64,000 bases of DNA from an uncultured delta proteobacterium (GTDB lineage: Bacteria; Desulfobacterota; Desulfobacteria; Desulfobacterales; B30-G6): the NCBI GenBank assembly GCA_963701385.1, contig CAVOZW010000006.1, positions 143,798 through 207,797 of the forward strand, written 5' to 3'. A program made the position numbers and the translations under genes. The notes beneath the pieces are model-generated. The model ran no database searches and was not told where the DNA came from. It worked only from the letters and a program-made list of their open reading frames with translations. Positions 33,273 to 49,891 of this stretch are shown one piece after another. The stretch's first letter is position 1. Every line of letters starts with the position of its first letter.

Positions 33273-35623
33273 TCAGCTATCCCCTATCAGTATGAGCTGA
33301 ATAAAGCATGTCGGCCAGTCATCCAGGTCCACCGTCGGCAGGTCCTCGTCCGCCGAAACCGTCACCACGGCGTCATCCGTGTCTTCAACGGCATCCCCCA
33401 CCCTGACCTTCAATTGAAAAGTCAAGCATTCACCCTCGTCCCCTCCCAGAGGTGTCACAAAGCTGGCCGTGGCGCTGTCGGCATCCTTTAAAACGACTGC
33501 CGGTCCATCCACTTGCGTCCAGGCGTATACGGCGATACCGTCTGGATCGTAGGTGCCGGACCCGTCCAGGGTTACCGCCAAGTCGGCCGACGCCTCGATG
33601 TCCGGGCCCGCATTGGCCATGGAAGGGTATGTCAAGGTCGACCCCACCGCAACGGGTGGCGTGGCCGCTGGGATGGCTTCGATGACCGGAAGATTAAAAT
33701 CCTCTCCTTTGTCGTAAATAAGATCGGCAATGGTCTCGGTATCCGTGGTACCCCACCAGTTGTCAGACAGAGTGAACTCCGGGTTCGGTGATACCGGGTG
33801 GCCAGCCGTATAGGTAGACGGCCAGTCCACCGTTTGTCGACACATCAAATTGGTTGGCGTTGACCTTGAGATCGTAACCGGCACTGGCGTCGGCGAGATT
33901 TATGGCTATGATGCCGGCAGTATCCTCCGCTACAGCGCAGCAGATTGCTTTGCACACTGACCAAGGCCTTGCGGTCCAGGTCAAAGGAGTTGAAGGCCGA
34001 TAGAAGCACGGTGCTGTCCTCTAGGATACAATCGGTCGGATCCAGGGATCTGAAAAGGGCCGGATAAGCTCACCAAAAATGGTGATGGTGACAGTGTCCT
34101 GTGCCTCAAGCCCCTGGTTGTCCACCACCGTCAGCGCAAACGTGAATGCTTCCGGATCTGCTCCTATTGCGGGTACGGAAAAGAAAGGACGCACCGTTTC
34201 AGCGTCTTCCAAGTTGACGCTGGAGCCTTCTGTTTGTATCCAGCTGTATGTTGCGATGCTGCCGTCCGGGTCAGACAGAAGGACCCGTCGAGTTCCACGG
34301 ACGTCTCCTGGAAAACAAAAAGATCCACACCCGCATCGGCAGTGGGTGGGATGTTGGTGTCAAAAACCAGAATATCCACGCTGTCGGTGGCCTCCAGACC
34401 TTCCGTGTCCGTCACCGATCACCTCAAAGGTGAAAACCTCTCCTTCAGGCGCAAGCAGGGGTGCCGAGAAAGTGGGGTGGATCACCTGGTCATCGCTCAG
34501 CGTAACATCACGTGCCGGCGGTCTGCGTCCACAGATAGCCGCAATACCCTTGTCCGGGTCAAAGGATCCCACGGCGCTGAGCTGCACTTCCGCGCCGATC
34601 TCTACGGCCTGGTCGGCCCCGGCGCTGGCCACTGGCGGTATGTTGGTGCCGATCACGAGGATTTCCACCGATTCGCGTGTCGGTCAAACCGTCGTCGTCT
34701 GTTACGCTTAGATCAAAAACAATGGTTTCTGTAGCAGCGCCCACGATGGGTGCGGTAAAGGTACCAAAAGGTGAATGGGGATCTTCCAGGTCCACGACGG
34801 TCCTGCCGTTTGCGTCCATGTGTAGGCGGCGATACCGTTGTCTGTGTCTACCAGATCCATGCGAAGGTTCATCGCGGCGCCGATCAGTTGCGGGAGCATC
34901 ATTGATTATGGTGTTGCTTTGCACCACGATGTCGTTTGAACTGGTGCGAATATCCATACCCTGGGCATTGTCGATGAGGAAGTTGTTTTGAATGAGCGCG
35001 CCCTCGAGGTTTAGACGGATGCCAACGGCGTGGTTGTGGATCCGGTTGGACAAAATCTGCAACCGTCCACTCAGGGTCTGGGCCAAAAGGATGTCGGTGG
35101 CTGAAATGCCGACGCTGCTGCCGTAACGAATCGTGTTATTACGGATCATGGGTTGAGCCGAAAAAGTCTGAACACAGGCGGCACCGTAGGACGTGGTGTT
35201 GCCAGCGTATTCAATGACGCAGTTATCCAGAATGCAACCGGATGATGTACTGTCGTCCCAATCCTTGCTCGAATCCATAAAGAGAAGGCCCCCCCAGGGG
35301 GAAAGTCGGTCTACTGCAGTAAAAATAATGGGGTCGTCCACGGTGCCCTGTGCATTTAGGGTGCCCTCCACCAAAAGGAAGGAGCCTTCGGCAGCATTTA
35401 CATTGCGCTGGAAACGCACGGTCACACCCGGCTCGATGGTCAACGTGGCCTCTTCGGACACCCGGATATTGCCGACAACCCGATAGGGGCTCTCGGAAAG
35501 CGTCCAAGTGGTGTCTGTGTCGATGATACCGCTCACATTGGCGGCTGAAGCCGGACGGGAGACAAACAAAAGGATGTAAAAAATCGTCAAAAGAAGGCAC
35601 AAACCGAATCTGCATCGAAACAT
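33273..35623 (-). CDS. Secreted beta-helix plus PKD/REJ-like repeat protein with CF tail (several frameshifts)
   Basis: Signal peptide; DTTWT..SPY, LTIEPGVTV, GT.DDPIIFT; repeated PP.A.AG.D..V.L.G..S.DPDG; ends TCFIQLILIGDS. Confidence 0.8.
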
Positions 35624-35951
35624 AGAAATACCTCAGTTCGTCTTGATTAAGCGTTTGGGAGGTTTGTTAGAACCTTGGCTGAAGTTTGCATATCTTATAT
35701 TTAATTTGAACGATTATCAAGTTTGAATTCTATCAAGGCAAAGGGAGATGTTGACATTAGGCACTTTTGCGTCTCGGTATATAGCGTATCGTTGGGTGAT
35801 CGTTTTGAAAAATGGCTAAGTCCGAAAATTTCACGCTCCTATTGATTGTCCAGTTTCATGGGTTATATGAGCTATGACCTATAACCTAAATTTACTATGT
35901 ATATCAATTTTTCAAAGAACGTCCATCGTCTCCAATTCATCGTTGATCAAG

Positions 35952-35971
35952 TGGTATCAATGATGATACCA
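35952..35971. promoter_or_regulatory. Perfect palindrome, probable HicB operator
   Basis: TGGTATCA-atga-TGATACCA ending 7 bp before the hicA ATG. Confidence 0.65.
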
Positions 35972-49284: not shown

Positions 49285-49336
49285 ATTTCATATTCCCATG
49301 GATACAGTCAGCATATTACATCATGACTTTAGCGAG

Positions 49337-49891
49337 TTAGCGATAAAAAAGTTTACCCAATGTGGAGCAAAAGCACCCACCCCCACCGCCTCCACCCCCA
49401 CCGCCATTTTTCGGCGGATCAATAATTTGACTGGTATTTTCCCACATAGCTGTGTCGGAAAAACCACTTTCAAATTCCCCGTCAAAGGCCGTACAAACGA
49501 AATAGTAGAATTTATCTCCCTCTGACTCATCGACTGTTATCGTATATCGGTACTTGCCAGGTGAATACATTTCTAAATTTGGATTATTTTCAACGTTGAT
49601 GGACACGATGTCATAATCAATCTCACCGTTCAGCAAGCCTTCAAGCACCTCTTCAATATCAGATTCGTCATAGGTCACCGGTGAGGTGATCCAGTAGATA
49701 TTGTAAGCCGTGACATTGTCTCTGGGTTGATTTGCATCCCAGGTAAATGACAAAGATTCATCAGCATAAACGAATGAGATAAAACCAACGTAAGCAGCAA
49801 ACAGAACAACAAGACATATCAGCTTGATCGATTTGAAATATTTTACAGCCACTATTGCCATAAAATTTAGTCCGGCACGGATAGGATTCAT
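49337..49891 (-). CDS. Small secreted FN3-like protein with poly-Gly plus CF tail
   Basis: Signal peptide; SFTWDAN..YNIYW..YYFVCTAFDGEFESGFS; ends in poly-Gly then CFCSTLGKLFYR. Confidence 0.82.
   Translation of the reverse strand: MNPIRAGLNFMAIVAVKYFKSIKLICLVVLFAAYVGFISFVYADESLSFTWDANQPRDNVTAYNIYWITSPVTYDESDIEEVLEGLLNGEIDYDIVSINVENNPNLEMYSPGKYRYTITVDESEGDKFYYFVCTAFDGEFESGFSDTAMWENTSQIIDPPKNGGGGGGGGGGCFCSTLGKLFYR

Follow-up and report, generated by a model that had tools for sequence, protein, structure and literature searches.

In the course of analysis of a 64,000-nucleotide stretch of the genome of an uncultured delta proteobacterium (assembly GCA_963701385.1, contig CAVOZW010000006.1, positions 143,798 to 207,797; Desulfobacterales, B30-G6), hereinafter the window, we found on its minus strand, at 33.3-49.9 kb, four co-oriented genes for exported repeat proteins, denoted A to D, each of which ends in a linker, Cys-Phe and a few more residues. 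These tails are probably copies of a short motif without a transmembrane (TM) helix, the CFI box, of the kind modelled by the NCBIfam entry NF041763, on Sec-exported, surface-type repeat proteins, and we favor the view that the box itself is a processed sorting signal. A candidate for the cognate machinery is encoded on another contig of the same genome, in an operon that couples a 495-amino-acid membrane protein with HEAT repeats (mem495) to a CPBP/Rce1-like glutamic protease; the comparisons described below suggest this assignment, although it falls somewhat short of being probable.

Gene A, 49337-49891, minus strand: intact open reading frame (ORF) of 184 amino acids with a signal-like N-terminus, an FN3-like module, an 11-Gly linker and the tail CFCSTLGKLFYR (49340-49375).
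Gene B, 43421-49284, minus strand: about 1,950 amino acids, Pur_ac_phosph_N/fn3 repeats, at least five frame changes, tail CFMRLLAE (43424-43447).
Gene C, 38474-42802 (start approximate), minus strand: about 1,440 amino acids, fn3/Pur_ac_phosph_N repeats, at least seven frame changes, tail CFVQLIGDS (38477-38503).
Gene D, 33273-35623, minus strand: about 780 amino acids, signal-like N-terminus, right-handed beta-helix, K319L-like PKD domains, at least six frame changes, tail CFIQLILIGDS (33276-33308).

The C-terminal sequences reported in the original prediction are exact on the minus strand, namely, GGGGGGGGGGGCFCSTLGKLFYR in gene A (stop codon 49337-49339), DDVASCFMRLLAE in gene B (43421-43423), GSSGCFVQLIGDS in gene C (38474-38476) and DDWPTCFIQLILIGDS in gene D (33273-33275), and in none of the four is the Cys followed by a hydrophobic stretch or TM helix. 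The span from the Cys to the end is 8-12 residues, with CFC, CFM and CFV appearing as substitutes for CFI, and the preceding linker consists of 11 Gly in gene A and GSSG in gene C, and is acidic in genes B (DDVAS) and D (DDWPT). In its general form, the motif comprises a flexible Gly/Ser/Asp linker, the invariant Cys-Phe, [ILVM]-x-[ST/L]-[LIM], one to six further residues and the stop codon. Gene B also has a signal-like N-terminus, starting with MKYKYKNSWLYLMALFMALGVF. Of the four ORFs, only that of gene A is intact; in genes B, C and D, the tail nevertheless shares the reading frame of the last recognizable domain. For gene A, the Pfam search gave no match, and a search of 5.8 billion proteins returned only the query itself among 17 candidates of 101-322 amino acids, the sole lengths covered.

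The motif is already catalogued in NCBIfam. The entry NF041763.1 (sort_motif_CFI, 'CFI-box putative sorting motif-containing protein'; 14 positions, cut-off 15.9 bits) describes the same arrangement, in which a Gly-rich linker, C-F-I and a handful of residues close the C-terminus of secreted proteins without a TM segment, whereas NF041770.1 (CFI_box_CTERM; 69 positions, cut-off 40 bits) describes a long form in which the box is followed by a conserved domain of about 60 residues and a TM helix. Thus, of the original proposal of a distinct TM-less signal, the part that stands is that the TM-less tail is a true signal, conserved at the C-terminus of secreted proteins; it is neither distinct nor unrecognized, being modelled by NF041763 and standing at the head of the CFI-box-CTERM domain. 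Elsewhere in the source genome, NF041763 matches tails at 15.5, 12.0 and 11.8 bits, and the best of these, on contig C18 (141636-141671), reaches 16.3 bits when taken with its neighbors in frame. The model scores above its cut-off in 30 of 61 relatives versus 1 of 14 control genomes, and among the 20 matches that were fetched, 14 are true short tails, for example, CFIQSLLD, CFINSLF and CFINTL, each followed by a stop codon; the matches in genomes G052 (internal rather than C-terminal) and G192 were discarded as spurious, and that in G133 is ambiguous. A six-frame search of the whole source genome with NF041770, reading through stop codons, found nothing above the cut-off (the best score, 17.2 bits, falls inside mem495), so that the window tails are not truncated long domains, a possibility that we reject, and do not extend into a full CFI-box or TM domain. 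In the library searched, no paper with the CFI-box name or the accession numbers was retrieved, and neither a publication nor a partner enzyme was found for NF041763; the Haft preprint on Cys-containing sorting signals has no occurrence of 'CFI'.

A bare CF[IVMLC] is a poor guide to these tails: its density in the final 20 residues exceeds that in the interior of six-frame ORFs by a factor of only about 1.3 (93 matches, 12,403 ORFs). It is the composite motif, that is, the linker, C-F-[ILVM]-x-[ST]-[LIM] and the stop, that stands out from the background. When a position matrix trained on 43 independent homologue tails was scored on 19,176 six-frame ORFs of at least 80 amino acids, 11 ORFs (40.0-12.4 bits) were separated from the rest (7.7 bits or less), with gene A at rank 2 (36.5 bits) and gene C at rank 7 (20.7 bits). 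Nine of these 11 top-scoring ORFs have N-termini of the n-h-c type, as judged by eye without a predictor. A scan of the genome for a low-complexity linker with a Cys near the stop revealed more secreted proteins with the same ending on contigs C1, C10, C11, C14 and C18, and one CFI-tail protein of this genome also contains a 'choice-of-anchor U' domain. With at least 11 short tails, two tripartite ones with a TM helix and a basic cluster behind the box, and no long domain above the cut-off, the source genome uses the TM-less form almost exclusively.

The Cys is conserved in homologues. A search of 1.84 billion representative proteins with a 261-amino-acid protein encoded on C18 yielded 71 homologues, of which 48 end in a Gly run and C-F, the Cys being 7-9 residues from the end in 39 of the 48; two have the long domain (P0053 and P0037 carry NF041770 at 105.7 and 83 bits, respectively), and the rest are fragments or have other ends. 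Only the Cys and the Phe are invariant. Relatives of the last domain of gene B were detected in 12 other genomes, at 16 loci, with C-F-I present at 14 and the remaining two unreadable. The peptide pattern G[GD][GD]GGGGCF occurs in at least 599 stretches across species genomes, with only four homologues of the query among the matches listed, which indicates that Gly-run-Cys-Phe endings are widespread on unrelated proteins. The ESM Atlas search with the C18 261-amino-acid protein was uninformative (best score 0.78).

The ends of genes B, C and D share a further feature, in that the stop codon of each lies in or at an array of the heptamer (AGCTSAT)n.

Heptamer array CTATCAG, 5.3 copies, 43384-43421: begins at the gene B stop codon.
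Heptamer array AGCTATG/AGCTATCACCTATG, 38410-38493: overlaps the last codons of gene C and encodes QLIGDS and the stop.
Heptamer array, 33262-33290: overlaps the last codons of gene D.

The residues past CF[IV]Q are encoded by the repeat in three of the window tails (CAGCTCATAGGGGATAGCTGA). Two diverged copies of gene D, on contigs C23 (94.4% identity) and C22 (75%), both keep DDWPTCF[IV]QL, and a 13-bp repeat indel alters what follows, such that the tail is CFIQLILIGDS in the window, CFIQLIADRG in C23 and CFVQLIGHS in C22. By the strict pattern, the genome contains 14 arrays of this heptamer family, 10 on the contig of the window and four on the variant contigs C22 and C23. Only one of the 14 has TGYTTY within 24 nucleotides upstream, by a rough test in that the strict regular expression starts arrays late. 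The Cys-Phe codons thus do not belong to the repeat; they lie upstream of the arrays, and we reject the idea that the whole tail is a product of the heptamers. The intergenic spacers of the window are generally crowded with tandem repeats of 7, 8 and 9 bp (103 rows in Tandem Repeats Finder, TRF), for example, at 3632-3800, 9610-9743, 15475-15796, 22730-22837, 28173-28239 and 29408-29471. The two copies of gene D, each with the adjacent gene for a small barrel-like protein, stand at the beginning of their contigs (C23:1-3521 and C22:1-3589; 12.7 and 11.5 kb, respectively), which may be strain haplotigs or paralogues.

With many frame changes in three of the four genes, three stops within repeat arrays that encode the last residues, the feeble enrichment of the bare tripeptide at ORF ends, and scores of genes B and D near zero, the window tails could be viewed as by-products of frameshift, truncation or heptamer expansion that created chance Cys-Phe ends on decaying genes. 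This explanation appears to be largely refuted, and we consider it very improbable: every tail shares the frame of the last domain, the C-F box stays in the same place in orthologues and paralogues, TGYTTY precedes a single strict array, intact genes elsewhere in the genome have the same ending, and public contigs from three studies are free of indels at the sites of the frame junctions.

The frame changes themselves, some 20 of them and all single-base, are clustered at 30000-53000 of the window (in the VanZ gene, genes B, C and D, and the Bac_transf gene); the first 1-29 kb consists of long intact ORFs. The C23 and C22 copies of gene D have frame breaks at places that differ from those in the window. 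In the public short contigs, from seven runs of three studies, each run containing at most 0.10 of the sampled words, single bases are lacking or added at 33929, 34677, 34798, 34895, 38677, 39348, 40812, 40862, 41462 and 45350, and most of these ten sites coincide with frame junctions of the window, with three in agreement with C23; one contig lacks a base at 38677, the frame junction just ahead of the gene C tail. These contigs are 150-650 bp long, with a depth of 2-8, and 90-99% alike, and so represent related strains, not necessarily the source strain; the apparent 'joints' between them pass through heptamer repeats and were regarded as repeat cross-matches. In relatives, gene B is represented by single ORFs of 1,959-1,989 amino acids, with the endings NCFIGLVK and DCFIRSVIFE. 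Because the public contigs lack the indels at the junctions and gene B is intact in relatives, errors of assembly or consensus probably account for the breaks in genes B, C and D, in a region of surface-protein genes that varies among strains, and mis-polishing of this region is a likely cause of the cluster. Gene C also contains a 315-bp tandem repeat (41478-42452; 3.1 copies, 95% identical), that is, recently duplicated fn3 units.

Several observations argue against the assignment of the window tails to the CFI box. None of the four is reported by NF041763 even at E <= 10; gene D scores 0.9 with the position matrix, which does not place gene B among its top 45; three of the four genes (B, C and D) are frameshifted and might be pseudogenes; and the repeat-encoded residues that follow CF[IV]Q are either unimportant or a sign that the tails are decaying. 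The tails also depart from NF041763 in the CFC, CFM and CFV variants, the Asp-rich linkers of genes B and D, and the repeat-encoded last residues. It is the Gly run, absent from genes B and D, that weighs most in the matrix; the membership of these two is based on homology instead, their orthologues or paralogues having the C-F box at the same position. Taking all this together, we regard the tails of genes A and C as very likely CFI-box motifs and those of genes B and D as likely ones.

An indication of what the box does comes from the comparison of orthologous proteins with different ends. Among the loci that encode relatives of the gene B last domain, the box is followed by a short tail in seven, by a TM helix and a basic cluster in six (one of these in the source genome) and by the long CFI-box-CTERM domain in one; the C18 261-amino-acid family likewise combines predominantly short tails with NF041770 domains. 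The short and long forms have the same Gly run and C-F-I box on homologous passenger domains; in the long form, unlike the short one, some 100 further residues (AAYGS...FRD..LL.N..G..F..YY.SPP...) lead into a TM helix, and this form has a different, much wider distribution among genomes. Sequence comparison thus shows the CFI box to be interchangeable, on orthologous passengers, with the TM plus basic-cluster tail and with the long domain, and such interchange of anchors is a hallmark of a processing or sorting signal. Conceivably, the box is real but is never cleaved, the Cys acting directly, either as a metal ligand or by an intermolecular disulfide or thioether bond with a protein of a sheath or S-layer or with another partner, with the F-I-x-S-L stub as a docking strand. 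Such a role is compatible with the invariance of the Cys and Phe alone, with the tolerance of the residues behind them to repeat-driven change, with a tail too short to span a membrane and with the different genome distributions of the long and short forms. However, it does not explain the swapping of the box with TM-containing ends, a pattern typical of processed signals, or the co-occurrence with an operon that includes a protease, described below, and we consider it unlikely.

As stated in the original prediction, no processing protease is encoded in the window; the candidate is on contig C14 of the source genome (G000).

mem495-CPBP operon, G000:C14:343907-346011: gene for the 495-amino-acid membrane/HEAT protein and the CPBP gene.
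Candidate CPBP/Rce1-like glutamic protease, C14:343907-344548: 214 amino acids, PF02517 at 66.3 bits.

The CPBP gene overlaps by a few codons the end of the upstream mem495 gene. In the predicted protease, the motifs EExxxR, FxxxH and HxxxN are intact, and E134, E135, R139, H166, H200 and N204 are invariant in 14 orthologues; among the NCBIfam models, it is most similar to MrtJ (43.2 bits, cut-off 75), followed by MrtS (37.6 bits, cut-off 130) and Mrt_core (16.4 bits, cut-off 100). The genome has three PF02517 genes in all, and the other two, on C2 (after a UbiA-like gene) and C1 (coding for a 608-amino-acid protein), were rejected, with no CFI gene nearby. A gene for a 299-amino-acid secreted CFI-box protein adjoins the CPBP gene tail to tail, and 3 kb away is a gene for a DUF4465 protein that ends in GGGGWITCFVGVLGK (a CFV tail). 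The CFI-tail neighbor persists at 10 of 15 loci in the family of the source genome, with endings such as CFIAVI, CFVNTIQ and CFINTLR. In the source genome itself, the 299-amino-acid protein (L006 11027-11926, that is, G000:C14:343027-343926) reads 31 residues past the Cys (CFITTSVSSYF...). In nine relatives, the distance from the Cys to the stop is 6-31 residues, and at most 11 in seven of them, so that the long end is probably due to a lost stop or an assembly indel.

The confident AlphaFold model of mem495 (pLDDT 87.4) combines HEAT repeats and a small alpha/beta domain with seven long helices, and seven membrane helices are predicted. A Foldseek search of the PDB with mem495 produced nothing at E <= 0.001; the VIA-wide search with the whole model recovered the HEAT repeats only (Z 16.1 to alphaRep and 14.6 to CpcE/F), and with the model of residues 1-360 (pLDDT 82.2) the best Z of 8.0 was obtained on the small alpha/beta sub-domain, with LptE/HpaA-like chains and anticodon-binding chains of tRNA synthetases, within the noise range of the tool. 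The helical bundle has no fold match, and the fold searches give no function for the membrane part. The alpha/beta domain (residues 213-297; mem495 is encoded at L016 2121-3605) is weakly similar to LptE/RlpB/HpaA-type folds and to anticodon-binding folds of tRNA synthetases, at Z 6-8, again in the noise range.

Across the order, mem495 and the CPBP gene remain paired at 27 of 30 loci, and they do so at 12 of 17 distant loci. In the sample of the order outside the family of the source genome (46 genomes), a CFI match occurs with CPBP in 15 genomes and without it in 3, whereas 8 have CPBP with no CFI match and 20 have neither (Fisher p = 7e-4). In an even sample of the phylum, 20 of 251 genomes encode mem495, and short tails verified from DNA are found in 8 of these 20 compared with 1 of the 231 that lack it (Fisher p = 3e-9; kinship inflates both p-values); these span seven families and include two genomes of 2.5 Mb, and the sole exception, G265, has a distant mem495 homologue just under the threshold (E 1.2e-9). 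Moreover, mem495 itself appears to be related to the long form: a profile comparison with hhalign of 20 mem495 orthologues and 117 long-form domains aligned 43 columns (Prob 90.5%, E 1.3e-6; E 0.31 and 0.36 in controls with one or the other side reversed). The common element reads FxxIRDxLLLSNxxGxxxNxFYYxYTLYPAE in mem495 and ILRxFRDxxLLxNxxGxxFVxxYYxYSPPxAxFI in CFI-box-CTERM, and no part of mem495 is more strongly conserved.

The link between this operon and the CFI tails has to be weighed against several unfavorable observations. The candidate was found by a targeted search rather than an unbiased profile, and the CPBP is below every Mrt cut-off (43.2 versus 75 bits for MrtJ). The CFI-tail neighbor is present in none of the 15 loci of other families, so the adjacency could reflect shared descent. 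Genome G030 (97% complete, 9% contamination) has a true short tail, GGCFIRALF, but neither mem495 nor a CPBP orthologue was found in it, and G034 (85% complete) has mem495 and a short tail with no CPBP orthologue found; conversely, 11 of the 20 genomes with mem495 have no CFI match over the limits set. The long form, for which at least 1,218 proteins were counted and which occurs in 68 of the 251 genomes of the phylum sample, is not enriched with mem495 (5 of 20 genomes with it versus 63 of 231 without), and therefore mem495 is not a universal CFI-box enzyme; the long form is clearly independent of it. Furthermore, we know of no CFI-box protein for which cleavage, lipidation or surface location has been demonstrated. 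A prediction of the mem495-CPBP complex gave a score of 0.00, against a mark of 0.32, and no answer, which counts neither for nor against binding.

Several of these facts would be accommodated if the CFI box were a sorting signal served by other machinery, be it a different CPBP, a rhomboid, an exosortase-like protein or an export system that reads the C-terminus, with the mem495-CPBP association reflecting shared lineage. The 63 genomes that have the long form and lack mem495, genomes G030 and G034, the two further PF02517 genes and the targeted nature of the search all point in this direction. By contrast, the specificity with which the short form tracks mem495 across seven families, small genomes included, the profile-level homology between mem495 and the CFI-box-CTERM domain, and the substrate gene that adjoins the operon speak against it, and we view this as an appreciable but rather improbable alternative.

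In the favored view of the box as a processed sorting signal, the Cys would be modified after Sec export, the few residues behind it would be removed, and the processed protein would be left tethered for surface display. With mem495-CPBP as the machinery, one could further envisage that the CFI box is captured at the outer face of the inner membrane and that the removal is carried out by the CPBP protease. The RD-LL-N-G-F-YY-P module that substrates of the long form hold in cis might be supplied in trans by mem495, so that short-tailed substrates could dispense with an anchor of their own; since the residues behind the box would be discarded, the heptamer repeats would be free to rewrite them. 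Under this scheme, the TM-less CFI tail is the substrate of an undescribed two-protein machine, mem495 plus CPBP, a periplasmic bacterial counterpart of the CaaX pathway with the anchor in trans; in this complete form, the proposal is possible but distinctly doubtful.

Related systems are known. The eukaryotic CaaX box has a Cys four residues from the C-terminus that is prenylated, and Rce1 is its protease. The CFI tail resembles it as a soluble end with a C-terminal Cys and hydrophobic residues and no TM helix, for which the candidate protease is of the Rce1 family, and the CaaX-like mechanism suggested in the original prediction would fit the sole candidate found. The differences lie in the distance of the Cys from the end, which is 8-12 residues for the window tails and typically 7-9 in the homologue family, rather than four, and in the compartment, which would be the periplasm after Sec export; neither a prenyltransferase nor any other Cys-modifying enzyme was identified. 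The tripartite Cys signals of the MYXO-CTERM type are similar in that a low-complexity linker leads to a short signature in which the Cys is invariant. The candidate enzyme described here is a CPBP/Rce1-like glutamic intramembrane protease with best scores to MrtJ and MrtS, although below all Mrt cut-offs, and a substrate gene lies next to its own; tripartite variants with CFI, TM and basic segments are encoded by two other genes of the source genome and at six orthologous loci. For MYXO-CTERM/MrtX, modification of the Cys and removal of the residues behind it have been proposed and, according to PMC11980579, partly demonstrated. In the papers on these signals, the TM helix and the Arg cluster are treated as part of the architecture; both are absent from all four window tails, and the pairing of a CPBP with a 495-amino-acid membrane/HEAT protein is not described there.

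The genomic context of the four genes is less informative.

Interruption between genes C and D, 36170-38237: MazE-type antitoxin and PIN, Phd-type antitoxin and PIN, HicB.
Small protein, 32316-32882, minus strand: 188 amino acids, signal-bearing, ends in GLVGFYW, similar to a small outer-membrane barrel; no Pfam match.
VanZ and weak LamG protein, 31011-32109, minus strand: frameshifted; VanZ 55.6 bits, Laminin_G_3 15.4 bits, below the cut-off.
Bac_transf priming sugar transferase, 50614-52653, plus strand: at least two frames, with model positions 1-101 in 51572-52141 and 102-179 in 52141-52650.

The genes had been described as four consecutive co-oriented ones; they are co-oriented, but two PIN-type toxin-antitoxin pairs and HicB intervene between C and D. 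The proposed tie to a glycan locus fares worse. The flanks amount to the frameshifted Bac_transf gene, a UDPG/GDP-Man dehydrogenase fragment and the VanZ gene, and the remaining 26 kb upstream is occupied by genes of acyl-CoA and molybdoenzyme metabolism; the CFI-tail genes outside the window are dispersed among unrelated genes, and the five at 100-148 kb of C18 have no common neighbor or protease. The 'glycan locus' around genes A-D is thin, and its link to the tails is weak. The 188-amino-acid protein, with three tblastn matches in the genome (on C6, C23 and C22), occurs only beside gene D and its two copies and was rejected as a partner of the CFI tails. The G+C content at 54000-64000 of the window is 65-68%, compared with about 50% in the rest of the window and the genome, which could reflect a foreign island or a chimeric contig join. 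At 36402-36968 and 43206-43772, the summed contig depth in four metagenome runs is 75-690 versus about 1-5 elsewhere, and many metagenome contigs stop at 36620-36680, which suggests a short element of very high abundance in those sediments.

As far as the window is concerned, the outcome is sobering, in that the motif had been catalogued before, two of the four tails match it weakly, and the genes are damaged in the assembly. The broader interest of the CFI box, which is abundant, lies in the role of C-terminal sorting signals, which decide which proteins bacteria display on their surface, and every new pairing of a signal with its enzyme (sortase, exosortase, rhombosortase, myxosortase) has given rise to a field of research. 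Among the prokaryotic signals, the short CFI form is the odd one out, having no membrane anchor of its own. The value of the present finding is in the mem495-CPBP operon, a concrete, conserved candidate for the missing CFI-box enzyme that is directly testable by the E. coli co-expression assay with which myxosortase was established.

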